Positions 239 to 51,803 of a stretch of DNA of 64,000 bases are shown one piece after another. The stretch is from positions 32,001 to 96,000 of the IMG/VR virus record IMGVR_UViG_3300047157_000162; one strand, given 5' to 3'. Each line of letters opens with the position of its first letter. Positions within the stretch are counted from its first letter, which is position 1. The notes beneath the pieces were generated by a model. It ran no database searches and was not told the DNA's origin. It was given only the letters and a program-made list of their open reading frames with translations. Source of the stretch: a virus. The position numbers and the translations under genes were made by a program.

Positions 239-3200
239 TTAATTTAGTACTCTTCTCTTACTGCTTTTTCCTCTTACGTTCTTTCTACTTTTGGATTTTT
301 TAGATTTTTTAATACCTAACTGCCATTCAGACCATCCAGCTAGTAAAGCTACTCTCTGCGCTACAGATATATTTTCTTGAGTAGATGCTGTTACATTATT
401 TATTTTCTTAACAACTCTATCTAGAGGTACGTTTGTCGTAGCTGATATAACATTAGCTCCCGCTAAGTAAGCCGGGTTGTCTAAACTAAAACCTTTTTCT
501 TTTATTTCTTTTTCATCCCAAGAAAAAGACCTACCAGCGGCTTTTAATTTACTTATTTTAGAAGATATTGGTGGTGATAATTTTAATAACTCTGAAGCAG
601 CATTTTCGTACTTAGGATTATCTTTAGCACTCTCTTTAGCTAGTTTTATACCAGCGTTTTTAATCACAGTAAAAACCGCTCCACCTATACCCGTACCTCT
701 AAGTATTGAATCAAGCATACCGTTTGCGATACCAACTACTTTCTTTTCGTCTTCTTCTTCATCTTCTCCAAATGTTATAGCAAATAAAGCTTGCTGCAAC
801 GCATTAAATATTAAGTTTTGTGCTACACCATAATATATAATCTTAGATATATTTGTTTTAGCATCACCTCGACCATTCTTGAGATCACTAGCGGCTTTTT
901 TAATTAATCTAGCGTATTGCGCTGGTGTGTTAGCGAAAGCTAGTATAATACGCCCTAATGGACCCGCTTGTTGTTGACTTATTCTATCAGGTCTACTTGA
1001 CTGTTGAGATTCTTCTGCTATCTCTCTAAAGTCTCTTAAAGCTTCTCTTTCAGCTGCCATACTGCTTTTACCTTGTTTCATAAGAGATTTAACTCTATTT
1101 CTATAAAAAGTTGCACCACCAGATGCAATAGCAAAACTATCAGCTATTTGAGTTGGCGTAAATCCTAATTTTAATAGTTTGTTTATAACACCTCTAACAC
1201 CTCTTTCTTTAGCTATATCAGCAATATCAGCTTCATTAACATTCATCTTTAATCCATCACGTCTCTCGATTAAGAACTCAGAGTTAAATAGTTTTTTGAA
1301 GTCTGTCCAATATTGTTTTTGATTAGCAAAAGCTTTACCTGCAGCTAGTATATTATTGTCTCCAAAATTTATAAAGTTTACAGCAGACAATGTTTGTAAC
1401 ACGGCTGATCTAGTGTTAAAAAACATTATAGCACCAATACTACCTGTTAACCAGTCAGTTACTCTGGTTGTTAAAGAATCTACACCTGTAGATCTATTTC
1501 TACCAGTCTTCATTCTTTTTAATATATTCTCCATAGCCATACGATATTGTTTACCATATATAGCCTCTAGTTTATTTAAGTTTTTCTCTGAAAATATAAT
1601 ATCAACATTTTGTTGCCAAAGTTCTAAGTACTTTTTTCTTTTATTTGTATTTAAAGTTTCTAATAAATCAGTCGTTATGGTACCTGTATTCCAAGAGTCA
1701 GTAGGTGATATATAGCCAGTACCTTTGTTAAGTTTCATTATTTCTGTACCAAATACTTTTAGATCTGGGTTTGAGTCAACGTATTTAACTAAACTATCTA
1801 TATCGCTTTTGTCTAAACCAGGAACATCTTCACCTATTTGATTCCATATCCAAACACGAACAGCTTGCTCTTTAGTGAAAGAATCTCCAGGTATCTTCTT
1901 TTTTAAATCTTTTGGAACTATTTTAAGTTTCTTTTTTAACTCTCTAAAATCCCTACCTAAAGCATTTCTATCTCTAGATATGTTTTCCATAGCTCTAGCA
2001 AATGGGTTTAGTAAATTTTTCTTATACCAAGCCATTTGAGCGTCTCCTGTCCTACCCTTACCTAATGTAGCATATAACAAACCTACAAAATCTTCAGCTG
2101 AAGGTGGTATAAAGAATTTAAATCTACCTTTACTAGCTCCAACAGTCTCTGCTTTTACTCGCTTATATTCTTTATCAGAAGCTATACCAGACTTTTTCTC
2201 TAATATATCGTTAAAATCTTTATCTAAGTTTTGAATATTACTGAACTGTATACCAGCTTCTGATTGCTGATCATCTAAGCTTTTCATTTCATCTAAAACT
2301 TGATCCATAGTAAAATTACCTTTTAATCTTTTAGATTTAGGTAACGTGTCATTATTAGATTTAGACGCTTGCAGTGTTGACTTGTATAATTCTTTTATAC
2401 TTTTTACATTTTTACTTTCACTAAAATCAAGTATTGGTGTCAAAGATATATTAGCACCGTTATTTTCATTAGCATATTTGTATCTAGTAGGAAAACCTTT
2501 TTCGTCTGGATATATTAAATCAAGAGAATAATCACTTTTAGAATCGCCTTTCCTAGGACCATTCATTTTGTTTGTTTTGTTTACTATAGAGTCTTGATCC
2601 TTAGGTATAATAGCAACATCGAAGTTCTTCATTATTTTATCGAACATGCTGTTAAATTCAGCCTCTGTTTTACTATTGTATAAAGCTTTCATCAATTCAA
2701 CAGAAGTGTCCGAAGCTGTTTGAGAATGTTCGTACACGTAATCAGAGTCACTTAATCCGTTTACATACATTATCCACTTAGGTATAGCCGCTGTTCTAAT
2801 TAAGGAATCAGTATTACTATTCATCATAGTAAAAATCATAGGTATAAAAGTCTTGTCATTAGGATTTTTTTTGTTATACTTTATTAATGTTTTTAGTATT
2901 TTCTTTAATCCTTTTCTTTGATCTTTGGCTATGTTAATTCTTTCCTTTATTGTTTCAAAAAACTTACCAGAGTTAATACCTTCTGACGATTGTTTTTTAA
3001 GAACAGATAGCTTTATTTTTTTACTGTTACCATCTATATCTGTATACTCAACAAGTCTATCACCTTTTTCATGAGTTATTTGTTTTAATCCCTTTTTCTC
3101 TCTGTGTTCGTTATAAGACTTAAAAAAATCAGATCTTCCTTCGAAAGCGATATTTCTAACGTTTTTAAAATCTTCAGAGTAAACACTTTTGCCGTTAACT

Positions 3201-6200
3201 GTTTTCCATTTATAGTTGTAACCCTTGCTAGCTGTTGGTAATATGTACTTCACAAAATCATCTTCACTGAAGCTATCAAATACATCAAATATATCTTTTT
3301 TAAATTTATTTACTTTTTGCTCATCATTAAAGTCTACATTAGCCTCTTTATTAGTTGTAGCTTTATATGCGTTTGATATTTTACTAAATTGAATATCAGA
3401 TTTACCTGCTTGTATGTTCTGCTTTTGTACGTCGGTGACATTATCTAACTGCCTTATTTCTGTGTTAGTAGCTAGTTTACCGAACAGCATTGTTATAGCT
3501 TTTAGTCTTTGACCTATTTTTCTGTCATACTTATTAGCTTCACCTTTCTTAATACCTAAGTCTTCTAAAAACTGCTCGTATGTAAGATCTTTTTTAAGTT
3601 CTTTAATAACAACTTGAGATGTAACACCTTTACTTCTTTTACCGGTAGCTTCGTAAAAAGCTTTCATTAAGCTTGTAGGTATCTTTAAGCCTGTACCTTT
3701 AACACTCTTATAAGCTTGGGCATCTACAGTGGCTAACTCAGGAGCTACGTTGTTTGGTGGCATTAACTTAAACAAGTCAGGACCCATAGACTTTATTATG
3801 TCTTGTATTTTACTTGACTCTGATTTTATAATCATACCAACCTTAGCTTCAGGGTAGTATTTTTTAATACTTTCTATATTCTTATTATCTACTACAACGT
3901 CTTTAAAAGCTAAGTTATCTGCAGGATCTGTAACTTTTAATACGGGTATATCAAATATTTCTGCAGTAACTTCAGCTGCTAAATCTTTTAAATTACCAAA
4001 AGTAGATCCGTCTATAGTTGCTTTACCAGATTCAACCATACTTTTAACAGCATCCCTGTATTTTTTCTGTAAACCTAAATCTCTTATTAATTCTATAGGT
4101 TTTATCTTTCTAGACGGTTTTTTAGTAGTTTCTACAGACTTTGTATCTGTTGTCGATGCAACTTCAGCTACTGAACCTACTTCACCAGCTTTAACATCTA
4201 GACTTTTATCTGCTATTTTTCTAAACTTCTCGTAAGTTTGTTGAGCTTTTGGAGCTATATTATTATACACCCAAGTAGAAAACTTAGATTCATCTGGTTT
4301 ATAAGATTCAATTATCTTAGGTAAAAATTGTCTAAGATAATCTCTTACTTCGGTTCTATCTAAATCTCCTTTTCTAGTGTCATATTTTATAGCTTTTAAA
4401 GCCATCGTATCGAAAGACTCTACTAATTCAGACTCTGCAGCTGCTTTATCTTTTCTAGTAGTTTCTTTTGATTTTATAGTCTCAACTAAAGCCTCGTTAT
4501 CATAAGTCTTTTTAGTAGTTTCTTCTTTTTCTGCTTTTTCTTTTTTAACTACAGGTTTTTTTACAGGTGCTTTTTTAGCTTGTATTATTTTATATTGCAG
4601 GTTAGATCTTAAAGCATCAAACTCGTCTGGATCATATTCAAACTCGTTTTCATCTAGTGTTTCAAGCTCTTGCTCTAAAGACTGAATTTTCTCTTGATTA
4701 ACATTAGAAAAATCTGATTGTTTTGTTTTAGAAAAATCAGTAGTTACACCTAACTTAGGAGCAACAAACTGCTTAATGTCTTTGCTTATAGCGCCTTTTT
4801 CCGCAGACTTACTATACTCTCGCATAAAGTTGTAAACATCTTTACCGGTGTCAAAATTTAGTTTGCTAAAACCTAGTGATCTAAATAAAGGCATTAACAT
4901 GTCACCTATCTTGGTAAATAAAGTTTCATTATATTTTATCTCTTTATCAGCAATAGCGTCAGAAAAAACAGTTAGGTATTCTTTATTATAAGTATCTTTA
5001 TTAACAATACCGGTTTCCTTATCTGTGTATCTAGCCTCCATCATGCGCTCCATGAAGTCTAATTGATCTTTAGATAACTGATTTTTAAACTCTTCAACTA
5101 CAGCACCTTGTTGATCTGCATCACCTACAATTGCGTTTAGTATAGGGTGTAATGTTTCGTGAGCACCAACATTTAATTGATTTAATTCCACAAGTCTATC
5201 CTTGTTCATAAAAAACTCGCCATTAGCAAAAAACCCACCGCTGTTATCACTGTAATTAGTGTTGTTTATTTTATTTGTTTTTTCAGCTATTTTAGATTTA
5301 TCTAATTTTTTATCTATATTGTTTATCTCAAGCTCTCTAGCTTTTTTATTAAAATCTTCAGGGCTTAGAGCAGTACTTTTTATACCAATACTAGCAGCAT
5401 CCTTAGCAAAGCTTAATGTTTTTTCTTTTCTATCTTTTTTTATTTCTAGATCCTGCTCTTTATTTATAGCATCTAGTCTTTCTGATTGTGTACCTGTTAG
5501 GGCTTTGTCGTTTATTTCTTTTATTTGAGCTTCTAAGTCTGATTTTTCTTTTTGTAACTCAACAATTTTAATCTCTGCTTTTTCGCTAAGGTTTAACGAT
5601 TTTACTTTATTTACAGTTCCTTGAGTCTTTATAAAATTCTTTTTTATAGCATCACCTTCCTCTTTTGTTATCTCAGCTCTTTTCACTTGAGCATCAACTT
5701 TTTCGTCTAGTATTTTTCTAGAGTTTTTTATTTTAGATATTTTAATTTCTGCATCATCAGTTTTAGTCTCTGGCTTAAAAACATCTACTATGTTTCCATA
5801 CTCAGTTCTATTAATCTCTTTGTTAACTTTAATTCTATCTAGGTTTGTTTGAATATTCAAAGCTTGCTTACCTAAAGTTAAAGGAGCACTACCTAACCCA
5901 GCAACTGCTTCAAAACCAATTTCAGCAACATCCATTTCTTGGTCAGCAACATACCTTCCAGCTACTTCACCTAAACCACCACCAGCTATTTCAACACCAC
6001 CGGTAACGCCAGCAGCAACCATAGGTGCTCTTTTAAATCCAGCAGTTGCTAGTTTACCACCAACACCTTTAGCTATTCCTAATGTAGCCATTTCAACAGC
6101 AGCGATAGCTACACCTCTATTTAAAGCTCTATTTTTTAAATCGGCTAGTTTTTCTGGATCTTGAAGTATTTTCTTTATTTTATCTGGATCTAAACCTCCT

Positions 6201-7102
6201 GCTTCTTCTTGAAGCAATTCAGCAAAAGTTAAACCAGTTTCCATAGCTCCCATAGTACCAGCCATACCACCAGCAACAGCTCCACCTAATGTAGATACTC
6301 CTGGTAAAGGTATTGCAGAACCAGCAACAGCTCCTGTAGCAGCAGCAGCAGCACCAGCTGCCCTAACTTCATCAGAGCGTAATGAGCTTATTTGATTAGA
6401 AATAGAACTAACTAGCATTGTAGATAGCGTTGAAGGATTGTTAACAACACCTTTTATGAAACCCCAAAAACCACCACCTTCTTCTTCATATATTCTATTA
6501 AAATCTTGCATCTCTGCAGATCCTAAGTTTTTTCTAGCTATTTCTTTGTTTTTGTTTACGAAGTTTAAAACATCTTCGTCAGTAGCTTTATCACCAAGCT
6601 TATATAACTCATATGATGGATCTACTAATTCACCTTGTCTCCAACCTTCTTTAGCCGCTGTAGCTATATCGCTAAAAAAATCAACAAAACCTGTAGCTGA
6701 AAAAAAGCTTTCATCTTCTTCTAAAACATCTCTTTCAGCTAAATCTTTTTGATATTCTTTAAATTCTTTTTCACTTACTGGCTCCCCGTTTATCACAAAC
6801 GGATCCATTGATTGTGATTCCAAAGAAGTATCTACCGGCGCTAATTCCGTATCTTTTAGTGCAATTTCCCCTTCCTGCGACTCTGCAACTGCACTTGGTA
6901 CATCGTCTGTCGGAAAATCTTCTGCAGAAGAAAAACCAAACTGTGTATTAAATTCATCTATAGATTTAGTGTACTCTCCGTTGTCGTTCAAGGCTTTGTA
7001 AAGTACTTTTGACTTTTCTTCGTTTCCAAATTGTTCTTTAAAATCTTCAAAAGACCCAGTATAATCACCGGCTTCAAATAAACTATTATATAATTCTTCC
7101 AT
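239..7102 (-). CDS. Giant (2287 aa) polyvalent internal virion/ejection protein with HExxH zincin and sigma-like domains
   Basis: Long ORF at the end of the structural operon; Gly/Ala hydrophobic tract aa ~245-410; HETLH at aa 648; KFSTWVY sigma region-2-like segment; helical C-terminal domain. Confidence 0.75.
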   Translation of the reverse strand: MEELYNSLFEAGDYTGSFEDFKEQFGNEEKSKVLYKALNDNGEYTKSIDEFNTQFGFSSAEDFPTDDVPSAVAESQEGEIALKDTELAPVDTSLESQSMDPFVINGEPVSEKEFKEYQKDLAERDVLEEDESFFSATGFVDFFSDIATAAKEGWRQGELVDPSYELYKLGDKATDEDVLNFVNKNKEIARKNLGSAEMQDFNRIYEEEGGGFWGFIKGVVNNPSTLSTMLVSSISNQISSLRSDEVRAAGAAAAATGAVAGSAIPLPGVSTLGGAVAGGMAGTMGAMETGLTFAELLQEEAGGLDPDKIKKILQDPEKLADLKNRALNRGVAIAAVEMATLGIAKGVGGKLATAGFKRAPMVAAGVTGGVEIAGGGLGEVAGRYVADQEMDVAEIGFEAVAGLGSAPLTLGKQALNIQTNLDRIKVNKEINRTEYGNIVDVFKPETKTDDAEIKISKIKNSRKILDEKVDAQVKRAEITKEEGDAIKKNFIKTQGTVNKVKSLNLSEKAEIKIVELQKEKSDLEAQIKEINDKALTGTQSERLDAINKEQDLEIKKDRKEKTLSFAKDAASIGIKSTALSPEDFNKKARELEINNIDKKLDKSKIAEKTNKINNTNYSDNSGGFFANGEFFMNKDRLVELNQLNVGAHETLHPILNAIVGDADQQGAVVEEFKNQLSKDQLDFMERMMEARYTDKETGIVNKDTYNKEYLTVFSDAIADKEIKYNETLFTKIGDMLMPLFRSLGFSKLNFDTGKDVYNFMREYSKSAEKGAISKDIKQFVAPKLGVTTDFSKTKQSDFSNVNQEKIQSLEQELETLDENEFEYDPDEFDALRSNLQYKIIQAKKAPVKKPVVKKEKAEKEETTKKTYDNEALVETIKSKETTRKDKAAAESELVESFDTMALKAIKYDTRKGDLDRTEVRDYLRQFLPKIIESYKPDESKFSTWVYNNIAPKAQQTYEKFRKIADKSLDVKAGEVGSVAEVASTTDTKSVETTKKPSRKIKPIELIRDLGLQKKYRDAVKSMVESGKATIDGSTFGNLKDLAAEVTAEIFDIPVLKVTDPADNLAFKDVVVDNKNIESIKKYYPEAKVGMIIKSESSKIQDIIKSMGPDLFKLMPPNNVAPELATVDAQAYKSVKGTGLKIPTSLMKAFYEATGKRSKGVTSQVVIKELKKDLTYEQFLEDLGIKKGEANKYDRKIGQRLKAITMLFGKLATNTEIRQLDNVTDVQKQNIQAGKSDIQFSKISNAYKATTNKEANVDFNDEQKVNKFKKDIFDVFDSFSEDDFVKYILPTASKGYNYKWKTVNGKSVYSEDFKNVRNIAFEGRSDFFKSYNEHREKKGLKQITHEKGDRLVEYTDIDGNSKKIKLSVLKKQSSEGINSGKFFETIKERINIAKDQRKGLKKILKTLIKYNKKNPNDKTFIPMIFTMMNSNTDSLIRTAAIPKWIMYVNGLSDSDYVYEHSQTASDTSVELMKALYNSKTEAEFNSMFDKIMKNFDVAIIPKDQDSIVNKTNKMNGPRKGDSKSDYSLDLIYPDEKGFPTRYKYANENNGANISLTPILDFSESKNVKSIKELYKSTLQASKSNNDTLPKSKRLKGNFTMDQVLDEMKSLDDQQSEAGIQFSNIQNLDKDFNDILEKKSGIASDKEYKRVKAETVGASKGRFKFFIPPSAEDFVGLLYATLGKGRTGDAQMAWYKKNLLNPFARAMENISRDRNALGRDFRELKKKLKIVPKDLKKKIPGDSFTKEQAVRVWIWNQIGEDVPGLDKSDIDSLVKYVDSNPDLKVFGTEIMKLNKGTGYISPTDSWNTGTITTDLLETLNTNKRKKYLELWQQNVDIIFSEKNLNKLEAIYGKQYRMAMENILKRMKTGRNRSTGVDSLTTRVTDWLTGSIGAIMFFNTRSAVLQTLSAVNFINFGDNNILAAGKAFANQKQYWTDFKKLFNSEFLIERRDGLKMNVNEADIADIAKERGVRGVINKLLKLGFTPTQIADSFAIASGGATFYRNRVKSLMKQGKSSMAAEREALRDFREIAEESQQSSRPDRISQQQAGPLGRIILAFANTPAQYARLIKKAASDLKNGRGDAKTNISKIIYYGVAQNLIFNALQQALFAITFGEDEEEDEKKVVGIANGMLDSILRGTGIGGAVFTVIKNAGIKLAKESAKDNPKYENAASELLKLSPPISSKISKLKAAGRSFSWDEKEIKEKGFSLDNPAYLAGANVISATTNVPLDRVVKKINNVTASTQENISVAQRVALLAGWSEWQLGIKKSKKSKSRKNVRGKSSKRRVLN

Positions 7103-7127
7103 GTAATTCTATTTAATACTATTTATT

Positions 7128-8594
7128 TTATAAGTTATCGTACTTACCACCATTCTTTTTGCTAAGTATTTTTCTAATAGCTTCTAGCTTAGCATTTTTC
7201 TCAGATGAACTTCCTTCACCAGCTTTTATCATAGCTTTAGCGTATTGCATCATGCCATCTTTAGTGTCTAAGTCTATAGTTCTTTCTAAGTCTTCAAATT
7301 CACCAGCTTTTTGACCTGACTTTGTTGTAGTAAATATTTTAACTTTACCCATACCACCTTCTTCTGCTGGATCTTCAAATATAGTGCTAGTAATTTCTTC
7401 TACGCCTTGACCAAAGTTAACAGCTGCGTTAGGCAGTTTTCTTTCTCTAGCGTATCTTCTTAAATCATCTACAATTAATTTTGCAGATTCTCTACTACTA
7501 GCAGCTTTTTTATCAAAAGACGTTGGTTTATAATCGCTAGGTTTAGTTGTTCCAAAGTTTTTACTTGTATTGAACTTAGCGTTAGTATCTACAACATAGT
7601 TTAAATAAGCTTCTTGAATTTTAACTAAATCAGGATCAGGTATTAAATTACCTTCTTTATCTCTTTGCTGGGACCAAGAGCTTTTTTGCTCCATCTCCAT
7701 ATTACCTTTAGACAATACATCATTGTAAAAGGTTATTGCTTCGTTTGTTGGTAACCCAACTATAACGGCATTAACGTCTTCTTTAGCTTGCTTTTTAATG
7801 TATTCTTTATCTGGAAGTCTAGTGTAATAAATTGTCCCGTTTTCAGCTCTAAATTGTTTTGGCTCTGAGTTAGCATATACCATTGAAGTAACAGCATTTA
7901 AATCTAATTTATCTTCTAGTAATTTTTGAGTATCTGTTGTTTGTTTAGATAGGTTAGGTACGTAATCAGGTTGAGCTATACTACTCATGTCTTTGTTTAT
8001 AATACTACCAATTAGTTTGTCGTCTTCGTTATAAACGTCTATGTATACAACTGGTCCATCAGGTCCAGACATGTCATATCTAGCTTCTTTTCTACCAGGT
8101 GCGTCTTTAAAGCCATATAATATATCAAGTGCTTCTAAGTTCTCAGGTTTATTAGCTAAAGAAAAACCACCTTGATTACCCATAGGTATAGATCTTTTTT
8201 CTAAATATTCTTGCTGACCAGCCGAAGTATTTTGTAGTACGTCACCTATATGAGTACCTGCATATTGCATATTTCTTATAAAGTTCTTATCTTCTTGAGA
8301 TCTTTCGTTTGCAGGTATTTTATATATAGAGTTAAGTATATCTATTTGTTCGTTTAAACCATTAAAGTTTATTGACTTATTTTTAGACTGAGCTTGATAT
8401 ATAGATTGAGCAGCTGCTTCAGATCTTTTCTCAGCTTCTCTAATCATTATTTCATTTTTCCTAGCTCTTTCTTTATTATCAGCTGATATTTTATTTGCTA
8501 ATTTTTCAAATGAACTAGCTACAGACTGTTGCATTTGCCTAATGTACTGGCCTGATTGTCTATCTACAACCTGTTCTGGATTTCTATAACTCAT
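7128..8594 (-). CDS. Putative internal virion (ejection) protein
   Basis: 488-aa ORF between tail genes and the giant protein; coiled-coil N-terminus; assigned by synteny. Confidence 0.55.
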   Translation of the reverse strand: MSYRNPEQVVDRQSGQYIRQMQQSVASSFEKLANKISADNKERARKNEIMIREAEKRSEAAAQSIYQAQSKNKSINFNGLNEQIDILNSIYKIPANERSQEDKNFIRNMQYAGTHIGDVLQNTSAGQQEYLEKRSIPMGNQGGFSLANKPENLEALDILYGFKDAPGRKEARYDMSGPDGPVVYIDVYNEDDKLIGSIINKDMSSIAQPDYVPNLSKQTTDTQKLLEDKLDLNAVTSMVYANSEPKQFRAENGTIYYTRLPDKEYIKKQAKEDVNAVIVGLPTNEAITFYNDVLSKGNMEMEQKSSWSQQRDKEGNLIPDPDLVKIQEAYLNYVVDTNAKFNTSKNFGTTKPSDYKPTSFDKKAASSRESAKLIVDDLRRYARERKLPNAAVNFGQGVEEITSTIFEDPAEEGGMGKVKIFTTTKSGQKAGEFEDLERTIDLDTKDGMMQYAKAMIKAGEGSSSEKNAKLEAIRKILSKKNGGKYDNL

Positions 8595-42963: not shown

Positions 42964-43140
42964 AGGGGCCCCCGGCCTTTTTTTCGGCTTTGGCGCACGG
43001 TTTCGGCTTTTCGGTGCGGTTTACGGTGCAGGTTCAGGCTTATGCTATCGGGTCTGGTACTGCGGTGCGGCTTACTGGCATCTGGATCCTGGATGTTCGG
43101 CTTACGGTTGCGGTTCGGCTACGGCTTACGGCTTGCCGTT
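42964..43140. repeat. GC-rich, G/T-skewed CGG-unit tract at the strand switch (candidate genome end/packaging region)
   Basis: GGGGCCCC palindrome then about 20 short CGG/CTGG/CAGG units; composition unlike the rest of the window. Confidence 0.5.
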
Positions 43141-43374
43141 TGTATAGCATTTGTACAAGACGAATACGATGGAGATCCGATAATATAAGTGAATCTAAAA
43201 TAAATATAAGATATGAAACCAAAGTAACCAGAATAGACAAAGATCTACGACAGATACCCAGGACAGGTTGACCAGATCAAAGCCTACATCGAGAATGAAA
43301 ACAGACTACGACCAGGATCAATTCCTTGAAGAAGATATACTTGAAGACATACTAACTAAATTAGATATAATATA

Positions 43375-43512
43375 ATGTACAGATCAGAAATCAGAACCAG
43401 ACCAGATGGAACCAGCTACGTGCAATGTATCTGGATCGGAGACCAGACCAAAGGATCAGACCAGGGAACAGCAACTGACCTCAGCCCAGCTCAAGGCTTG
43501 GAACACGACTGA
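43375..43512 (+). CDS. Early microprotein (45 aa)
   Basis: MYRSEIRTRPDGTSYVQCIWIGDQ...LEHD*. Confidence 0.4.
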   Translation: MYRSEIRTRPDGTSYVQCIWIGDQTKGSDQGTATDLSPAQGLEHD

Positions 43513-43743
43513 GTAATGCTCAGGACCGGAGGCGCAGCCGAAGGCTGTATAGCACGTATAGCATACTGCGTATAGCATTTTGACAGAGTGAACACGATCT
43601 CATTTCGATAATATAAGTGAATAACAAATTAAGTAAAATGTTTGAAATTAGAAAATAATAAAAATAACAAACTAAATACGAAGACTATTCGATAATATAA
43701 GTGAATAACAAATAAAATAATAATAACTAAATAAATTTAAATT

Positions 43744-44082
43744 ATGTCAAATCAAGAATTAATTACAAACGCGATCGCAAACATGTCAAACGAAGAAAAA
43801 GCAACAATCTTCCCTCCGATCACAAGAGCCAACTTCGTAGTCCGTAAATCATGGCTCGGCCGAAATCAAATCATAACTTTCAACACGAAAGCGACCAAGA
43901 CAAAGCCAAGTGTCAAAGTAACGTACAATCACGATGAAGTACTGGAACTAATGTTGCCGAAACTAAACATCATGCCATGTTGGATCAAACGTGGATACTG
44001 GTCACAGTCGACAGACATGCCGGCTAACACGAGACATCTGTCAGATCGTGTAACAATTGAAACTGAGGCTACTGAAAAGTAG
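43744..44082 (+). CDS. Early hypothetical protein
   Basis: 112 aa after two tandem class I promoters; ends in an 11-bp GAAA-loop hairpin (44063-44088). Confidence 0.7.
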   Translation: MSNQELITNAIANMSNEEKATIFPPITRANFVVRKSWLGRNQIITFNTKATKTKPSVKVTYNHDEVLELMLPKLNIMPCWIKRGYWSQSTDMPANTRHLSDRVTIETEATEK

Positions 44083-44152
44083 TCTTAGGATCAACCCCTG
44101 ACAACACAAACACGAGTAACAAACGATAATATTAACAAATAAAACAAAAATT

Positions 44153-44248
44153 ATGTATTCAAATTGCTGCGGCTCAGAAGCGAGCTATCTATCAGACGAG
44201 TTATGTGGACAGTGCCTGGAATGGGCAGAGTTCGATGACGAAGAGTAA
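44153..44248 (+). CDS. Zn-ribbon microprotein (31 aa)
   Basis: MYSNCCGSEASYLSDELCGQCLEWAEFDDEE* directly after promoter 44100. Confidence 0.6.
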   Translation: MYSNCCGSEASYLSDELCGQCLEWAEFDDEE

Positions 44249-44257
44249 ACAAAAAAC

Positions 44258-44302
44258 GTGACAATAGCCTACTATTATATTAATATAACAAGCTAACGTC
44301 AC
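44258..44302. promoter_or_regulatory. Spaced inverted-repeat site, copy 2
   Basis: GTGACAATAGC-N23-GCTAACGTCAC. Confidence 0.7.
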
Positions 44303-44434
44303 ACTTTTTAACCTTACCGCTTCGGAAGTTCCGTTGCGAGGCTTGGCCTGGGTATTTTGCTATACACCGGAAGAGTAGACTCCGCCCTACGCGACGTTTA
44401 AATGCTATACATCACCCAATATGCTACGATCTTA

Positions 44435-44527
44435 AGTGAAAATCACCTAAAAACCTCCACTTTGTAGGCAAATTAACTAAAAAACACTCTATTTGTAGTG
44501 AAATTACCTACTTTTACTCAATAAGAG
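44435..44527. repeat. Three degenerate ~31-bp tandem repeats
   Basis: AGTGAAAATCACCTAAAAACCTCCACTTTGT / AGGCAAATTAACTAAAAAACACTCTATTTGT / AGTGAAATTACCTACTTTTACTCAATAAGAG. Confidence 0.5.
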
Positions 44528-44637
44528 AGGTAGTGTAATACTTTCTACTACTATTTTTACTCACTAATATTTTTACACCTTTACAAAACAAATACGATCA
44601 CCTAACGATAATATATGTGAATTTAAAAATAATACTT

Positions 44638-44844
44638 ATGAAACCAAAAAATGTTGAATTTATTGAAGAATTTATAGAAATACTAGGTGGCGACAATTTT
44701 TTCCTATGCGACCTGATCGATCAAGATCAACTATTTACTATGCAAGGTGAGTTAGCCCAACTAATATGTGATCACGCTAACAACGGAACTTCAGTGGCAA
44801 GACATTTAGTACCATTATTACCTAACACATTTAAAGTAGAATAA
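44638..44844 (+). CDS. Early hypothetical protein
   Basis: ATG 44638 after promoter 44582. Confidence 0.6.
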   Translation: MKPKNVEFIEEFIEILGGDNFFLCDLIDQDQLFTMQGELAQLICDHANNGTSVARHLVPLLPNTFKVE

Positions 44845-44942
44845 TATGAAAGAATATCACGGATTTAATAGCGAACAAGAGTATGAAGAGTATGCACAGT
44901 TAATGTGGTTAATAAATAATAATAAAGAACAAGATTGTAGGT

Positions 44943-45146
44943 ATGAATTTCATGCAAGGTAACGACTACGAATACTTTAAAAAATTGTGGTGCGAAAACA
45001 ACGAACATTTACTACAATTTTATAGAGAAATGTTATATACTTTTCCAATAGAGTGTAATAGTGTGAATACAATAGAATTTATTAACAAGTGTATGTGGGC
45101 GTTTCATTCAACCTCAGTGTTATACGATGAATACGGAAGCAAATAA
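44943..45146 (+). CDS. Early hypothetical protein
   Basis: 67-aa ORF in co-oriented array. Confidence 0.55.
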   Translation: MNFMQGNDYEYFKKLWCENNEHLLQFYREMLYTFPIECNSVNTIEFINKCMWAFHSTSVLYDEYGSK

Positions 45147-45170
45147 GAACTAAAATAAAAAAGTAATACT

Positions 45171-45392
45171 ATGATGACAATGAAAGAAGTGTGTGCATAC
45201 GTCGCACAAAAGAGAAAAGCGGATGCTATACAACACCGCAAAACGGTAACCCAGGGTGAATATTGTTCAGGGTTGACAGCGAAAGAATACCGAAAAGTGA
45301 AAACTAAAGGTAAAGGATCGGGTAGTAAAGGTAGATCATTCTCCCACACTAAATTGTGGAATCACTACAACCAACCAGTGACTACAAACTAA
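45171..45392 (+). CDS. Early hypothetical protein (basic)
   Basis: 73 aa; stop lies inside promoter 45383. Confidence 0.55.
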   Translation: MMTMKEVCAYVAQKRKADAIQHRKTVTQGEYCSGLTAKEYRKVKTKGKGSGSKGRSFSHTKLWNHYNQPVTTN

Positions 45393-45538
45393 ATACGATC
45401 ACCTATTGATAATATATACGAAATTAAAACAATAATAATGAGAAATTTTAAACACAAAGTACTATTTGTACTAAAGCGAGCAAACAGAGTATTAACCGAT
45501 CTTGGCACCGCAGCGGCCTGGGCAATAAGAAATTAACT

Positions 45539-45793
45539 ATGGAATTATGTGAAAATATAACCGTGAACGGTTGGGATTTTGAACTAGTAGAAAACGATGT
45601 AGATGATATATTCTACCAATGTAGAGGCGAAGTAATGTACGACGACGAACACGATGAAATGCCAGAACCAAGTCTTTGGCGAGCAGCACAAAAATTAGTA
45701 GATATACTAGTGAATGACGGCTTAAGAGTATACGCTGGTCACTCTGAAAAGGGCTGGGTAGAAGTAACAATAAATGTAAATAATGGAGCATAG
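45539..45793 (+). CDS. Early hypothetical protein (acidic)
   Basis: 84-aa ORF. Confidence 0.6.
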   Translation: MELCENITVNGWDFELVENDVDDIFYQCRGEVMYDDEHDEMPEPSLWRAAQKLVDILVNDGLRVYAGHSEKGWVEVTINVNNGA

Positions 45794-46037
45794 AGGTTAT
45801 TCATATAAAGAAATTCAAGTAACAAATTGGCGAGATGTCACGTCAACAATGTACCAATGCAATGACGTTGATCTACTCAAACACACAGATGTAAGCGTGT
45901 TTACAAAGTTCACTGAAAAGCGAATGCAAGAAGCGATCGACTACTATATAGATAACGTAGAGTACCATAAAAACTTAAAAACATTAACCGAAAAAGCGGT
46001 AAAAGATTTTTACAAACTGAATACGATTAAAGATTGA
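45783..46037 (+). CDS. Early hypothetical protein
   Basis: 84 aa; reads through promoter 46011. Confidence 0.6.
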   Translation: MEHRGYSYKEIQVTNWRDVTSTMYQCNDVDLLKHTDVSVFTKFTEKRMQEAIDYYIDNVEYHKNLKTLTEKAVKDFYKLNTIKD

Positions 46038-46065
46038 TAATATATACGAATCTAAAACTAATATA

Positions 46066-46248
46066 ATGAAAAATACAATTAAATTTATCCACTCAAAACA
46101 AATAGTATTAAACGGTAAAGTATATAAACCATATCTTGTCGGTGAGTTACCATCAACGTTCGGTTTTATCTACAACGAAGATAAAGATCAAGAAGGTATA
46201 ACTGAGTGGTTCAACTACAAAGGATTAACTTACTTAAAAAAACAATAA
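46066..46248 (+). CDS. Early hypothetical protein
   Basis: 60 aa after promoter 46011. Confidence 0.6.
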   Translation: MKNTIKFIHSKQIVLNGKVYKPYLVGELPSTFGFIYNEDKDQEGITEWFNYKGLTYLKKQ

Positions 46249-46358
46249 TATGAAGTTAGCAGCGGATCTACTACAAGAATTATCAATGTACATCAACCTC
46301 AACTATGAAGATGATTGGTACTTACAAGAAAAAGTAAATGAATTAAAAACTAGAATAT

Positions 46359-46550
46359 ATGAGCAATAAAAGAAACTTATACGAAATAGCGGAGAGCGTC
46401 GCTGACATAACTCTCGAACTAATGGAAGACAGTATTGACTGGCAACTAGGCGATTATCCCGCCGACGGTGACGACTACAATGCTATACACCAACAAGTAA
46501 TGCAACGTGCGATCGAAATAATGTACAAACAAAACACGATCACCCAATGA
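46359..46550 (+). CDS. Early hypothetical protein
   Basis: 63 aa; ends inside promoter 46524. Confidence 0.55.
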   Translation: MSNKRNLYEIAESVADITLELMEDSIDWQLGDYPADGDDYNAIHQQVMQRAIEIMYKQNTITQ

Positions 46551-46651
46551 TAATATAAATGTAATACGGAAGCAAACATCGGTGGACCGGCCGGTATATC
46601 TAATGATGAAAATGAGTTAGACGCCGATCACGCTTCCTTATAAAACTAAAT

Positions 46652-46725
46652 GGCGCGGTGGAGAAGTTGGTTATCTCGCGAGTCTCATAAACTCGAGGTC
46701 GAAGGTTCGAATCCTTCCTGCGCAC
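46652..46725 (+). tRNA. tRNA with CAT anticodon (Met, initiator-like)
   Basis: Cloverleaf: GGCGCGG/CTGCGCA acceptor, GAGA/TCTC D-stem, CGAGT-CTCATAA-ACTCG anticodon arm, GAAGG-TTCGAAT-CCTTC T-arm; no encoded CCA. Confidence 0.9.
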
Positions 46726-46745
46726 CTAATTTAAAATTAAATAAA

Positions 46746-46949
46746 ATGAGTAAAACAAAATTTAACGGATTTGAAAAGTATTTCATCCAAACAGCGTTGA
46801 GACACGCTATCGAAGAAGCAGAAACAGATGTACTAGCTACTGAATCTGAAGGTAAAAGATCATATATGCACCCGGTTATTTCACCTATGGTAGGTAATGA
46901 GATCATTGATAAAGTAAATAGTATGACACTTAAAAAATACCAAGATTAA
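46746..46949 (+). CDS. Early hypothetical protein
   Basis: MSKTKFNGFEKYFIQTAL... (the ORF-track start at 46650 overlaps the tRNA). Confidence 0.55.
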   Translation: MSKTKFNGFEKYFIQTALRHAIEEAETDVLATESEGKRSYMHPVISPMVGNEIIDKVNSMTLKKYQD

Positions 46950-47007
46950 TTACAAACTAAACACGACTACCGATCGATAATATATATGAATTTAAAATAC
47001 AAATAAC

Positions 47008-47241
47008 ATGAGCAATTTACTACAATCAATTAAACCTAAGTACATTAAACTTATTAATCAAAGTGATTACAAGTTTACGTCAACAAGAATTATTGCTAAA
47101 CTAGAAAGCAGTAAGTTTTACGGTGAGCTAACTATAAGCGAGATCAGAGATATCTACGATATGTGTAATATAAATGCACTCAGAGTATCAGCGTGGGACT
47201 ACAGGTTTGGCGATAACATTTTAATAGATAGCGATGACTAA
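47008..47241 (+). CDS. Early hypothetical protein
   Basis: 77 aa after promoter 46951. Confidence 0.6.
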   Translation: MSNLLQSIKPKYIKLINQSDYKFTSTRIIAKLESSKFYGELTISEIRDIYDMCNINALRVSAWDYRFGDNILIDSDD

Positions 47242-47449
47242 ACAAGAACTACAACAACGAGCAAGCGACAAAGCTTTCGCTAAAATGTCTATGCTCTTGA
47301 TTACGATCGAGCAAAACAAAGAAGATATACGTACAGGTAACTACGGAGGTGTTACATCACACGAGATGGATATAGTATTAAACAGTAATAAAATAGAATT
47401 AAAGGTGTGGCAATACATCACTAAATTAATAGAAACAGATGAAGAATAA
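47234..47449 (+). CDS. Early hypothetical protein
   Basis: 71 aa, overlapping neighbours. Confidence 0.6.
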   Translation: MTKQELQQRASDKAFAKMSMLLITIEQNKEDIRTGNYGGVTSHEMDIVLNSNKIELKVWQYITKLIETDEE

Positions 47450-48098
47450 ATATATAACCGATGAGTTAATAACTCAGAGAATGTCCGAGAAAGGTTGGAT
47501 CGAAGGATGCGACGACGAGCATGCTAGAAACCAAGTACTTGCACACTATGATTGTGAAATAACAGATCAATGGCAAAACCCTGACTTCAGTATATATGAA
47601 GAGTCAACCGCTGATGGTTACTCTGTATGGATAGCGACAGATGATGACAAGCATATAAACGTAAGTGAAGATGTTTATTATTACGAGAACGAGCTAACAG
47701 ATGTTGTTTATGATGCTATACATGACTACAATAATATATACTGTGATAACTATGACTTTATTGAAGATGCTATCACTAGGCACTACGAAGATCTATTATG
47801 TAAAATGGAAGACGAAATTATAGATGAGTTACTTAATGAAGGTTATAACCATAAAATAGTTAACCCTATAAACACGCTACAATATATAGAAATGATCTCT
47901 CAAGATTGTAGTTTTTTAGACGGTAGCTCAAGAGCTATAAATCTAACAGTAGATGAAGACTATAGGTACTTAAACTATGCTAGTCAAATAATTAAAGACA
48001 GAGCCAGGTATGAGATTGTAGCTAATCATTATGGTCTAACTATCGAAAGAGCTGTTAAAGGTGAAGTAATATTTAAAGAATTAAAAAATGAAAACTAA
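47439..48098 (+). CDS. Early acidic protein
   Basis: 219 aa, strongly D/E-rich. Confidence 0.65.
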   Translation: MKNKYITDELITQRMSEKGWIEGCDDEHARNQVLAHYDCEITDQWQNPDFSIYEESTADGYSVWIATDDDKHINVSEDVYYYENELTDVVYDAIHDYNNIYCDNYDFIEDAITRHYEDLLCKMEDEIIDELLNEGYNHKIVNPINTLQYIEMISQDCSFLDGSSRAINLTVDEDYRYLNYASQIIKDRARYEIVANHYGLTIERAVKGEVIFKELKNEN

Positions 48099-48351
48099 AA
48101 AACAAACAGTACCTAAATGGTTTAAAGGAACCATATATGGTGAAGGTGAAACAGTAACCAATCCGTTCAGTGGCGAATGCTATACACTCAACGGCCTCGA
48201 GCTCTCAATGTACGATTATATTATGGGTAGCCAATATATATTTGAAGTAGCACCTAAAACAGTTACACCTAAACAAGTTAGCGAGTTTCAAAAAGCGTTG
48301 AACTGGTTTCGTAAAAATAATGTTGAAGCATATATGGTGTTGCTTGATTAA
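48088..48351 (+). CDS. Early hypothetical protein
   Basis: 87 aa, ends EAYMVLLD. Confidence 0.65.
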   Translation: MKTKKQTVPKWFKGTIYGEGETVTNPFSGECYTLNGLELSMYDYIMGSQYIFEVAPKTVTPKQVSEFQKALNWFRKNNVEAYMVLLD

Positions 48352-48398
48352 TACAAACTAAACACGATCGCTGATCGATAATATAATAAACAAAAACT

Positions 48399-49004
48399 AT
48401 GAACTTATTAACACAAAATACTAAACTTAAAAAAACATCAAAAGAACTCGGGCTCCGGGTCTTTAACTTCGGTATTCCTGCCTACAAATCTGCTAGCGGG
48501 AAACTGACGTGCCCAATGGCTGACAGTTGTGTTAAATTCTGTTATGCCAAGAAAGGAGCCTACATCTGGAGTAACGTAAAACCTGCGTTTGAAAAGCGTT
48601 ATCAACTCAGCAAGACTGACATGTTTGTTGATGCTATGAACGCTGAAATACGTAAGAAGAAACCTGATTACGTCAGAGTCCATGATAGCGGCGATTATTA
48701 TTCTCGCGCATATCTAAAAAAGTGGATCGACATTGCTAATAGCAATCCTAACGTACGGTTTTACAGTTACACCAATATGATTGATATGATGTTAAAAACC
48801 TCATTACCAAGTAATTACGATATAATATTCAGTGACTCTGGAAAACAAAAACATTTAATAGATGAGACAAAACATAGACACACTAAAATTTTCTCAAGCC
48901 ATGCTGATCTTGATAGGGCTTCGTATACTGATGCCAGCTCTATTGATTTAATGGCAACTAAGTGGTTCAATAAAACAAATAAAGTAGGATTAGTATTTCA
49001 TTAA
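48399..49004 (+). CDS. GP88-family (radical-SAM-like) protein
   Basis: LTCPMADSCVKFCYA and VRVHDSGDY, FYSYT motifs. Confidence 0.7.
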   Translation: MNLLTQNTKLKKTSKELGLRVFNFGIPAYKSASGKLTCPMADSCVKFCYAKKGAYIWSNVKPAFEKRYQLSKTDMFVDAMNAEIRKKKPDYVRVHDSGDYYSRAYLKKWIDIANSNPNVRFYSYTNMIDMMLKTSLPSNYDIIFSDSGKQKHLIDETKHRHTKIFSSHADLDRASYTDASSIDLMATKWFNKTNKVGLVFH

Positions 49005-49129
49005 TGATAGCAATAATAATATGGATAATAGCGTATCTTTTATGTTTAACAATACTATTATACATAGAAGATATTACAGACTGAACACGATCAAACAAAG
49101 ATAATATAATAAACAAAAACAAAAAACTT

Positions 49130-49351
49130 ATGAACAATTTTGAAAAATTTAGATCTGACAATTCGTCAACAATTTCAACAGGTAGATATTATACCGAAAA
49201 CAAAACGCTTGTATTAATATACGAAAACGGTGGTGTATACGAGTACGAAGACGTACCATTATTTTATTGGCGTGGATTAATGAACGCTGAATCTAAAGGT
49301 AAATTTATTAACACTAACATTAAAAGATTATTTAAATTCACTAAAAGATAA
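49130..49351 (+). CDS. KTSC domain protein
   Basis: SSTISTGRYYTENKTLVLIYENGGVYEYEDVP...LMNAESKGKFINTNIK. Confidence 0.85.
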   Translation: MNNFEKFRSDNSSTISTGRYYTENKTLVLIYENGGVYEYEDVPLFYWRGLMNAESKGKFINTNIKRLFKFTKR

Positions 49352-49354
49352 TAA

Positions 49355-49639
49355 ATGACAGAGAAAGATATTACTAAAATAGCCGAGCTAACTGCTAAAA
49401 TTATTATAGATCATTTAGAAGCAAAGCAAGACGAATGGAATCAAGACTTCCAAGTATCAATGGAGAATATTAAACAAGACGGCTTTGGTAATATGCGTAT
49501 GATGTCTGAGCAAGAAATAATACACATGCAGATAGACGAACTACAGCAAGAGTTAGACAAAGCAGTTGAGGATGAAAACTTCACATTAGCTAGTAAAATA
49601 AATAATAAAATTATTAACCTAAATAAAAAATTAAAGTAA
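49355..49639 (+). CDS. Small protein with C-terminal UVR (UvrB/C) coiled-coil motif
   Basis: IDELQQELDKAVEDENFTLASKINNKI. Confidence 0.65.
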   Translation: MTEKDITKIAELTAKIIIDHLEAKQDEWNQDFQVSMENIKQDGFGNMRMMSEQEIIHMQIDELQQELDKAVEDENFTLASKINNKIINLNKKLK

Positions 49640-50133
49640 TGAATATATTTTATCTATCTCACGATCCTGTGCAAGCAGCTAAGTATCAATACAATAAACA
49701 CGTTGTAAAAATGATACTTGAAACCGCACAACTATTATGTACAGCTCATCACGAGTTAGGTACTAATATTGATATACCATATAAAGCTACGCATAAAAAC
49801 CATCCGTCAGCTATATGGGTTAGATCCTCTGCCGAAGCATATATGTGGGCATACGAACATATGTTAGCTCTTGGTAAAGAATATACAAAACGTTACGGTA
49901 AAGAACATCTTACAATCGCTAAATGCCGCGATGTGCTATACACTTTGCCTAACGGTATATCTGATAAAGCTTTCGAGCAGCCACCGCAATGTATGCCTGA
50001 CGAATATAAAGTCAACGGCAATAGCGTACTTGGCTACTGGAATTATTATGAAAACGAAAAACACACAGTAAAAAACAAAAATGAGCAGAAAATTATACGT
50101 CCACACAACATCAACGAATTATGCGAACATTAA
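49639..50133 (+). CDS. Pyrimidine-dimer DNA glycosylase (DenV-like) family protein
   Basis: MNIFYL...KHVVKMILETAQLL...YKATHKNHPSAIW. Confidence 0.7.
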   Translation: MNIFYLSHDPVQAAKYQYNKHVVKMILETAQLLCTAHHELGTNIDIPYKATHKNHPSAIWVRSSAEAYMWAYEHMLALGKEYTKRYGKEHLTIAKCRDVLYTLPNGISDKAFEQPPQCMPDEYKVNGNSVLGYWNYYENEKHTVKNKNEQKIIRPHNINELCEH

Positions 50134-50342
50134 TACAAAAATTCAAAAAGAACAGAAGAAAAGCAAAACACGTGAAGTTTCTTCACTTAAAGATAGCAGA
50201 GCTACACGGTGAAATAATTGCTGAATCTTTTAAAGGTGAATTTCAATTTAATAAAGGTATAACTGTTATATACAGTAATGTAGAAAATAAAGCAAAGCTT
50301 TTAAAAAAGTATAACAGAAGATTAAAATTAATAGTGTACTAG
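50121..50342 (+). CDS. Hypothetical protein
   Basis: 73-aa basic ORF. Confidence 0.5.
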   Translation: MRTLIQKFKKNRRKAKHVKFLHLKIAELHGEIIAESFKGEFQFNKGITVIYSNVENKAKLLKKYNRRLKLIVY

Positions 50343-50343
50343 T

Positions 50344-50387
50344 GTGACGATAGCTAGTATATAATAATAGTAAGAGGCTAATGTCAC
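50344..50387. promoter_or_regulatory. Spaced inverted-repeat site, copy 3, overlapping start codon of HTH gene
   Basis: GTGACGATAGC-N22-GCTAATGTCAC; ATG 50381 lies in the right arm. Confidence 0.7.
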
Positions 50388-51001
50388 AGTACGAAAGAAA
50401 TACAAGATATTTAGAGTTGCATCGTATAATATACAGACGTGATCCAGTAAATGATTTACCTACAGAAACTTTTGATTGGGGTAAGTTTTATGAAAATGGA
50501 ACGCATGAATGTTATACTTTGTTTAACTCTAAAGCTAAAATAAATACATATAAGAGCCTTAAGTGGCATATGTATGTATTATGGTACTTGAATCCACAAT
50601 TGGATCAAGACTCGTTTAGCGCATTGATTGAGTATATATGTGACAAAACTAAAGGCTTCGTAACATTTAATGTATCTGAGCAACTATTACAAACTATGTT
50701 ATACGATGTTTCACTTATGGATTTGGAAAAACCACCTCCTAATAAACTACGTAAGATAATATTTAAAGATAGTTCAGGTTTGGATATGCGACAAAAGCTT
50801 ACTATAGTAGGTCAAATGATAGGTAGAAACAAAATTTCATCAAGTGAAATATATGACGCTATGCTATTAATAAACCATGACAATCAAAAAATAACTATAA
50901 GTAAGTTAGCTGAGTCTTTAAATTGTTCTACAAGAACTATACACAGAAATATGAATAATGAACTTAAAAAAGAAAAATCACTTTTAAATAAAGAATTTTA
51001 A
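50381..51001 (+). CDS. DNA-binding protein with C-terminal HTH (regulator or Rep-like initiator)
   Basis: KITISKLAESLNCSTRTIHRNM. Confidence 0.65.
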   Translation: MSQYERNTRYLELHRIIYRRDPVNDLPTETFDWGKFYENGTHECYTLFNSKAKINTYKSLKWHMYVLWYLNPQLDQDSFSALIEYICDKTKGFVTFNVSEQLLQTMLYDVSLMDLEKPPPNKLRKIIFKDSSGLDMRQKLTIVGQMIGRNKISSSEIYDAMLLINHDNQKITISKLAESLNCSTRTIHRNMNNELKKEKSLLNKEF

Positions 51002-51044
51002 AATTACAGAACGGACACGATGAGTGCACGATAATATATATGAT

Positions 51045-51803
51045 ATGAAAAAATACAATATACAAAACTATATAAGGTATAAAGAAGATCTAAAAAGATC
51101 TATGCCTGAAGGTTTGTTTTGGGATGAATATACAAGAGATCAACTTATAGTAAAGTTTATACCATTAGTTGAGAACTTAGCTAGAAAGTTTTCTACATCT
51201 GATCAAGCATCAGGTGTATTAAGCATCAACGATCTGATACAATGCGGTTGTGAAGGATTAGTTAAGGCTGTTGACCGATTAGACTGGACTGTTTTACACG
51301 AGTCTGAGGACGTTGAAAAAACATTGAAGTCATTCTTAAGCAAACGAATCAAAGGAGCTATTAGAAGACGTATAGATATATGTAGGGGTAACATTAGAAT
51401 ACCAGAACATAAGCTAAACGAAATACGTAAAAATCCTGATGATAAAAAAGCGGTTGCTTTGTTTTTCAATTCAGTGTTTTTAAGTATAGACACGGCTAGA
51501 AGCGATGAAGATGAAGGTGAATCTTGGAGTGAATCAATACCTGATAAGTCTGAACCTTATAACATTCACTTAATGAATGCTTACTTGAAAAGTCTAATGA
51601 AAAAACATTTAGACGCAAGAGAGTATGAAGTATTGAGGCTGTCTTATGGTTTAGATTGTGATAAGCACTCAGCAAAAGAGATTGCAGAGATATTAGATAT
51701 CAAAGGTAAGCGCTATTATGTGACTGTTTCAGAGTTAAAAAAGCAAGCAGTGCAAACGCTAATAGATAACGTAGATCACTCGCAAGTGCTTGATTACCTT
51801 TAA
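51045..51803 (+). CDS. Phage RNA polymerase sigma factor (sigma70 family, group 3-like)
   Basis: Region 2 LIVKFIPLVENLARKF...DLIQCGCEGLVKAVDR...RIKGAIRR, IRIP, region 4 LDAREYEVLRLSYGL...AKEIAEIL. Confidence 0.9.
   Translation: MKKYNIQNYIRYKEDLKRSMPEGLFWDEYTRDQLIVKFIPLVENLARKFSTSDQASGVLSINDLIQCGCEGLVKAVDRLDWTVLHESEDVEKTLKSFLSKRIKGAIRRRIDICRGNIRIPEHKLNEIRKNPDDKKAVALFFNSVFLSIDTARSDEDEGESWSESIPDKSEPYNIHLMNAYLKSLMKKHLDAREYEVLRLSYGLDCDKHSAKEIAEILDIKGKRYYVTVSELKKQAVQTLIDNVDHSQVLDYL

Follow-up and report, generated by a model that had tools for sequence, protein, structure and literature searches.

The window analysed here is a 64,000-nucleotide (nt) stretch of viral DNA, bases 32001-96000 of the 129,537-base IMG/VR virus record IMGVR_UViG_3300047157_000162, and its giant open reading frame (ORF) P0001 is the subject of this work. 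On the same strand, upstream of the giant gene, lie the genes for terminase and portal as well as five genes with PHROG 'virion structural protein' matches (eight of the ten late-operon proteins scanned have a match to PHROGs). P0001 closes this operon and is thus encoded alongside virion genes, as the initial annotation of the window had stated. The opposite arm carries replication genes, nucleotide-metabolism genes and a free-standing sigma gene. A segment of the giant protein, amino acids (aa) ~863-972, folds in our models like domain 2 of bacterial sigma factors and is very probably a real, albeit highly divergent, homologue of sigma-70-family domain 2 (hereafter, the sigma-2-like domain; Table 1).

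Fold and homology of the sigma-2-like domain

The strings that had drawn attention to this region are located where they had been placed, at 3925-4504, which corresponds to aa 867-1059, with YDNEAL running from aa 867 (nt 4487-4504). The AlphaFold2 model of the region (model 1), built with an alignment of 30 rows (A1; 29 of 30 representatives taken, with P0084 left out), has a predicted local distance difference test (pLDDT) score of 90-97 at residues 11-100 and contains five helices over residues 9-107, that is, aa 869-967, in which the helices of regions 2.1-2.4 follow each other in the canonical order. Comparison of model 1 with 48,161 representative PDB chains using VIA-align placed sigma entries in all of rows 1-26, including SigI6, SigK, pro-sigmaK, SigW, WhiG, SigC, sigma-32 and sigma-28, the first unrelated fold appearing at rank 27. 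Similarly, all 50 rows listed by Foldseek are sigma factors or sigma-containing polymerase complexes (E 0.016-0.94; chain identities not each checked), and 27 of the 30 named neighbours in the ESM Atlas are Sigma70_r2 clusters (score 0.94). In profile-profile comparison, hhalign aligned the N-domain profile with 31 sigmas, namely, 30 sigma genes from two Flavobacteriia genomes and the phage sigma, over 82 columns and in the correct 2.1-2.4 register (P 2.4e-4, probability 43.5%).

The initial annotation had described the region as an extracytoplasmic function (ECF)-sigma-like domain with regions 2 and 4.2. The first part of that description, a sigma-70-family domain-2 fold, is borne out at aa ~863-972, whereas an ECF-type two-domain sigma is not, for want of a supported sigma-4; structure modelling and Foldseek comparison recovered a sigma-2 fold but no sigma-4 fold. 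Furthermore, the sigma-2-like domain, as modelled, is not specifically ECF-like: group 1, 3 and 4 factors all occur among the best structural rows.

Several results, mostly from sequence searches, weigh against the homology. The Pfam scan, in which matches to Sigma70_r2 and Sigma70_r4_2 had been anticipated, called neither on aa 800-1240, and no Sigma70 family is matched at E <= 10 on this segment or on P0001 as a whole. The rows that were returned are VG15 (0.12 and 0.021), YidB, vRNAP_dom (0.73) and DUF6594, and the domain at aa ~863-972 does not reach the curated cut-off of PF04542, which is 24 bits. A six-frame PF04542 search of the whole record matches only two free-standing sigma genes, and nothing bearing on sigma was found on the whole giant protein with Pfam, PHROGs or NCBIfam. 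The A1 profile of 30 relatives retrieved no sigma from among the PDB sequences, A1 and the alignment of the downstream part (A2, see below) yielding chance rows only (E 1.3-6.2). In the ESM comparison, 134 of 256 features are shared, which is under the 170 typical of true family members. Finally, hhalign returned P values of 0.095-0.35 with the 'PLAAYIN' subfamily alone, and a probability of 0.07% (E 0.7) against a narrow phage-sigma profile, although the latter, made of 120 near-identical phage sigmas with an effective sequence number (Neff) of 1.7, is too narrow a template. Among the 30 relatives, Sigma70_r2 is weakly matched in three (best E 0.035); in favour of the homology, it is the sole recurring family besides YidB.

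Table 1. Coordinates of the giant gene, its parts and the early-arm features in the window
Feature	Position	Strand	Remarks
Giant ORF P0001	239..7102	-	2,287 aa; last gene of late/virion operon
C-terminal ~640 aa, most conserved part	323..2230	-	aa ~1625-2260; candidate structural/packaging anchor
Compact alpha/beta domain	3386..4108	-	aa ~999-1239; ~240 aa; after sigma-2-like domain in most relatives
'Region 4.2-like' string DLAAEVTAEIFDIPVLKV	3932..3985	-	aa 1040-1057
Acidic/polar linker	4109..4186	-	aa ~973-998; predicted disordered
Sigma-2-like domain	4187..4516	-	aa ~863-972; all-helical; regions 2.1-2.4, KFSTWVY at aa 940-946
HETLH zincin-type motif	5147..5161	-	aa 648-652; conserved Glu at aa 708
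Early promoter-like motif, 12 copies (family D1)	43153..51052	+	core AYACGA-N9-GATAATAT
Free-standing phage sigma gene, sigma-2 + sigma-4	51024..51803	+	Pfam Sigma70_r2 5e-5, Sigma70_r4 1.8e-4

Architecture of the giant protein

The linker that follows the sigma-2-like domain has pLDDT values below 50 (model-1 residues 109-131, model-2 residues 6-19). Since model 1 is poor in its C-terminal half (pLDDT 50-70), aa 975-1250 were modelled separately with alignment A2, for which 25 of 26 members were taken and P0120 was left out. The resulting model 2 has a mean pLDDT of 84.4 and a predicted template modelling score (pTM) of 0.81, and consists of one compact alpha/beta domain. The string at aa ~1040 that had been read as sigma region 4.2 lies inside this domain (model-2 residues 66-83), in pLDDT blocks of 92-97, where it forms two short helices (H69-75 and H80-84), and no test lent it likeness to sigma-4. 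Neither Sigma70_r4 nor r4_2 has a Pfam match at E <= 1 in the 26 members scanned, and no sigma row is present in the Foldseek or VIA lists obtained with model 2, although the lack of such a row leaves room for a hidden helix-turn-helix. Given that no sigma-4 was found, the sigma-like part of P0001 probably falls short of a whole sigma factor. For the alpha/beta domain itself, there is no Pfam or PDB sequence match and no usable ESM Atlas match; the best PDB match in Foldseek has an E value of 1.2, and the sole structural relative, from BFVD, is a fragment of a giant protein of another uncultured virus (E 7.5e-5, TM 0.58). Judging from the model, this domain looks like a new fold, and such a confidently modelled domain with no known fold is of interest in its own right.

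In the N-terminal direction, aa 133-536 match phrog_32588, glycine/alanine-rich hydrophobic segments are found at aa ~248-382, and the zincin-type motif is well conserved, with H648, E649, H652 and E708 kept in at least 85% of aligned relatives; no Pfam peptidase family is matched on the giant protein. On the other side of the alpha/beta domain, aa 1250-1600 are unconserved, with no acidic motif kept, and lead to the C-terminal part, which shows a mean conservation of 0.4-0.7 per 50-aa bin, contains many near-invariant motifs and retains 43-66% identity in each of the 13 related genomes. The C-terminal 647 aa have no Pfam, NCBIfam or PDB sequence match. The strings AGKSDIQFSK (window 3380-3409, minus strand, aa 1232-1241) and AGIQFSN (2237-2257, minus strand, aa 1616-1622) stand at domain borders. 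In these AG..QFS strings, the A, G and F are kept across relatives at 60% or more, and the final S at up to 85% or more. Together with the conserved HExxH, the strings could be cleavage sites at which the giant protein is cut into pieces. With its hydrophobic segments, HExxH motif, sigma-2-like domain, alpha/beta domain, unconserved stretch and conserved C-terminus, P0001 has, as far as the sequence can tell, the build of a polyvalent or ejection protein, and it is probably packaged as an internal virion protein of this type.

Conservation, early promoters and possible roles of the domain

A phmmer search with aa 845-1240 retrieved 133 representative clusters (50% identity) at E <= 1e-3, 69 of which have E <= 1e-10, nearly all of them being proteins of 2,000-3,600 aa. 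The family is thus large, and comes from abundant uncultured marine Flavobacteriia podoviruses. Local iteration delimited the conserved module to aa ~866-1070, and aa 975-1250 are conserved contiguously with the sigma-2-like part in 99 of the 133 representatives. For comparisons at the genome level, we assembled a panel of 13 related near-complete genomes (G007-G019), picked from 80 listed loci as IMG/VR records of ~50-71 kb with at least two exact copies of the early promoter-like motif, shorter or single-copy records being left out. A1 matches are located inside the giant ORF in 11 of these genomes, and the remaining two match an iterated profile (at 3.4e-9 and, weakly, at a domain E value of 3.6e-4). 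Taken together, the profile matches indicate that the sigma-2-like domain is close to universal in this phage group. The complete genome MW202828.1 (60,850 bp), which encodes a barely related giant protein of 3,859 aa, has neither a detectable module nor a detectable early motif, but is a single distant data point.

Despite this wide occurrence, the domain is highly variable in sequence. Pairwise identity among 15 sigma-2-like domains (105 pairs) has a median of 18% and ranges from 10 to 83%. The helix that would read the -10 element differs widely across the 15 domains; the one constant among them is an aromatic residue within a [YWF]-[IVLM]-x motif, and the remainder of the helix varies freely. 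In our alignment, this constant aromatic position presumably corresponds to Y430 of E. coli.

The early promoters behave differently. The 12 early promoter-like copies reported in the initial annotation are real and all lie on the plus strand, and the phage sigma gene is indeed situated behind one of them, the last copy (51004-51052) abutting it. The motif is presumably unlike the Bacteroidota housekeeping consensus. Allowing for at most one mismatch, the whole record, which comprises two related genome units (A and B; see below), contains 19 forward copies, seven in unit A and 12 in unit B, versus one control match, and the motif is found in at least 120 stretches of IMG/VR. All 13 panel genomes share this promoter core, each with 5-14 copies confined to a single strand (controls 0-1), and the base directly 5' of GATAATAT does not vary within a genome but depends on the lineage (G, T, C or A). 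The free sigma is present in 12 of the 13 genomes, with 53-73% identity to the copy in the window. In four of these 12 (G008, G012, G014 and G016), accounting for four of the 13 matches listed, the match crosses one in-frame stop (TAA or TAG), which may be just a stop ahead of the start codon.

A subunit that confers promoter specificity would be expected to be kept along with the promoter that it reads, which holds for the free sigma. The divergence of the embedded domains, set against the constant promoter core, is the main evidence here, and argues against the sigma-2-like domain being a sequence-specific reader of the conserved early promoters, the role in which the initial annotation had cast it.

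The same annotation had suggested modelling the domain with the clamp helices of a flavobacterial RNA polymerase. We therefore predicted the complex between the sigma-2-like domain (A1 residues 1-112) and aa 240-350 of beta' from Mesonia profundi, a marine flavobacterium that serves as a stand-in host. Three runs gave a complex score of 0.69, whereas the highest-scoring of three controls reached 0.01; at least 57% of contacts are shared between the runs, and the partner has a pLDDT of 79 or more. When the tool was calibrated, 58 of 80 solved complexes attained the mark, as did two of 110 mismatched pairs. The predicted contacts connect beta' 289-316, the tip of the coiled coil, with module residues 27-34 and 57-69 (aa 887-894 and 917-929), and this surface is the canonical region 2.1/2.2 face. 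Given that many sigma-beta' complexes have already been solved, such a pass speaks for likeness to a sigma-beta' pair rather than for binding.

The explanation that we favour, at about even chances of being correct, is that the sigma-2-like module is a virion-delivered handle on the clamp helices of the host RNA polymerase. It draws on the sigma-2 fold, the predicted docking face, the near-constancy of the module in the giant proteins, the late-operon context and the conserved HExxH. We infer packaging, ejection, binding and consequence as follows: the giant protein would be packed in the capsid and ejected with the DNA; the sigma-2-like domain, which cleavage at the AG..QFS borders may set free, would then bind the beta' clamp helices of the host core RNA polymerase, and the bound domain would either compete with the host sigma or retain the polymerase on the genome as it enters. 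Certain observations do not sit easily with such a handle. The giant protein and its C-terminus have no match among 50,697 phage records (megablast, tblastn); the pass of the complex prediction, made with a stand-in host, may be a memory of solved sigma-beta' structures; and the clamp helices are conserved, so that docking alone does not explain the fast evolution of the domain. Such very fast evolution, which fits conflict-type or merely structural cargo, would agree with a reuse of the sigma-2 fold for a job away from the polymerase, be it the binding of phage DNA or virion proteins in packaging or ejection, or service as a host-defence decoy. The marginal sigma signal in plain hidden Markov model (HMM) searches, the replacement of the alpha/beta partner in some relatives (unit B has no A2 match) and the fact that only two of the 11 A1 matches in relatives reach profile position ~207 also point in this direction. 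Against it stand the predicted interface, in which the canonical region 2.1/2.2 face meets the beta' coiled-coil tip, and the retention, in one subfamily, of the pattern D-x-I-x-x-G-x-x-G-[IL]-[LM]-x-x-[IV]-x-x-[YF], which we take to resemble sigma-70 region 2.2. On balance, a non-polymerase job is possible, yet clearly the less probable of the two. That there is no homology at all, the domain being a generic bundle of four or five helices with a chance resemblance to sigma-2, would agree with the absence of any Foldseek match at E <= 0.001 and with the negative Pfam and PDB sequence searches, but is very improbable, considering that structure, language-model features and profile-profile comparison all converge on one family and register, and that unrelated folds start only at VIA rank 27.

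The proposal from which this analysis started goes further than a handle, in that the injected giant protein would supply a sigma function steering the host core to the 12 class I early promoters in advance of all phage protein synthesis. Compatible with this proposal are the sigma-2 fold, the docking predicted on the clamp helices, the aromatic residue at the position aligned with Y430 in 15 of 15 domains and the lack of a detected polymerase of the phage's own (PF00940 gave no match, in a search without a positive control). Motif and domain also co-occur in both units of the record, in G003 and in 12-13 of 13 relatives, whereas MW202828.1, a complete relative without the motif, has no detectable module. 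As for the covariation of domain and motif that had been put forward as a check, the base 5' of GATAATAT varies in part with the domain subtype, but this signal, like the co-occurrence, is confounded by shared descent. Moreover, the analysis detected neither a sigma-4 nor any other recognised DNA-binding domain, one of the other large proteins may contain a cryptic virion polymerase, and the contrast drawn above, between a promoter core that is the same in 13 of 13 relatives and would-be reading helices that are very different while the free sigma is not, tells directly against a reader. We therefore regard an injected sigma for the early promoters as unlikely. Hardly different in probability, and likewise doubtful, is a minimal injected sigma in which the alpha/beta domain, in the stead of sigma-4, would join the sigma-2-like domain in loading the host core on early promoters; ejection, perhaps followed by zincin cleavage at AG..QFS, would in that case precede loading at the entering genome end. 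If true, a minimal sigma of this kind would make immediate-early transcription independent of sigma-A and let transcription drive DNA entry, with no need for a virion polymerase.

The record, its relatives and comparison with known systems

Self-comparison of the record shows two related units of ~62-64 kb arranged head to tail, with matching segments that are 69-99% identical. A third copy of the first ~800 bases is present at the end of the record. The 129.5-kb record is probably an assembly of two co-occurring strains, not one genome. The sigma-2-like domain of aa 863-972 belongs to the first unit. In unit B, the giant gene is represented by two overlapping ORFs of 1,258 and 1,224 aa (L008, G000:C1:94500-102600, ORFs 4005..7781 and 398..4072, minus strand), and the position of the 5'-open ORF at 62897..64000 of the window suggests that it is the 3' part of the second of these. 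The break falls directly after a divergent sigma-2-like domain, which is matched by the iterated profile (5.7e-10), phmmer tying the tail of the N-terminal ORF to P0109 and P0105. The notion that unit B has the promoters without the module, suggested by blank A1/A2 HMM and blastp searches, was dropped in view of these matches. The part downstream of the break is unrelated to the alpha/beta domain, for which neither the A2 profile nor phmmer gave a match in unit B, and Pfam returned no sigma match on the unit B domain and five full-length relatives. The giant protein of G018 is also matched in two separate frames (1,337 and 737 aa); in both cases, a frameshift, an assembly error or a genuine split may be responsible.

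The terminase matches 87 cultured phage records, among them 68 from Flavobacterium, 15 from Cellulophaga, two from Tenacibaculum and one from Maribacter, podoviruses being its closest cultured relatives. Between the late and early arms, just ahead of the first early promoter copy, lies a cluster of G+C-rich short direct repeats with units of ~13-18 nt (families D7 and D13; window 42983-43130, plus strand). Contigs 79-95% identical to the phage ribonucleotide reductase occur in metagenome bins (loci L015-L031) whose labels include Flavobacteriales, Bacteroidetes, Aliivibrio, Nitrosomonadales, Nitrospirae, Woesearchaeota and Desulfobacteraceae. Mis-binning of phage contigs into metagenome-assembled genomes is the most likely cause.

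In sigma-70 factors, domain 2 is the part that attaches to the beta' clamp helices and engages the -10 region. Its known representatives (PF04542; for instance, S. aureus SigB, 8x6g_H; E. coli sigmaE, 2mao; M. tuberculosis SigA, 4x8k_A) are parts of free factors, whereas the domain described here is embedded in a giant protein, scores under every Pfam threshold, is not followed by a detectable sigma-3 or sigma-4, and evolves far faster than the phage's own free sigma. A closer parallel in terms of domain content is gp55 of phage T4, a late sigma that is essentially a sigma-2-like domain and requires gp33 and the sliding clamp; we take chain F of PDB 7d7d to be this protein. Unlike the domain in P0001, which sits in a presumed virion protein, gp55 is free and newly made.

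With respect to overall organization, P0001, a giant multi-domain protein encoded among virion genes and provided with a zincin-like motif, resembles the polyvalent proteins (Iyer et al., 2017, PMC5512222), which are giant, multi-domain products of virion gene blocks with zincin-type motifs and swappable cargo thought to be injected. Unlike the known polyvalent proteins, it has no MuF or other known anchor domain in the Pfam scan. A full-text search of the literature (main texts) turned up no virion protein reported to contain a sigma domain. Within the portions of the sources that the search covered, the word 'sigma' is absent from the main text of PMC5512222, a survey of jumbo phages mentions only free phage sigmas (PMC7824862), and the description of phage SU10 includes a free ECF sigma with one peptide in the particle proteome, with no claim of packaging (PMC4281155).

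The virion RNA polymerases (vRNAPs) of N4-like and crAss-like phages are comparable in that they, too, are giant proteins of the virion interior and provide for immediate-early transcription. They differ from P0001 in that no polymerase domain was detected here, PF00940 having no match (in the search without a positive control mentioned above) and vRNAP_dom being reached only at the marginal E value already given. A DIDGN string at aa ~1354 is not conserved, and PDB sequence searches with two other large virion proteins returned nothing relevant. To our knowledge, phages take over early transcription through the host holoenzyme, through an injected RNA polymerase, as in N4, crAss-like and phiKZ-like phages, or through injected enzymes that modify the host polymerase, such as Alt of T4. 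A sigma domain inside a virion protein would represent a fourth route of takeover, as well as a new type of polyvalent cargo.

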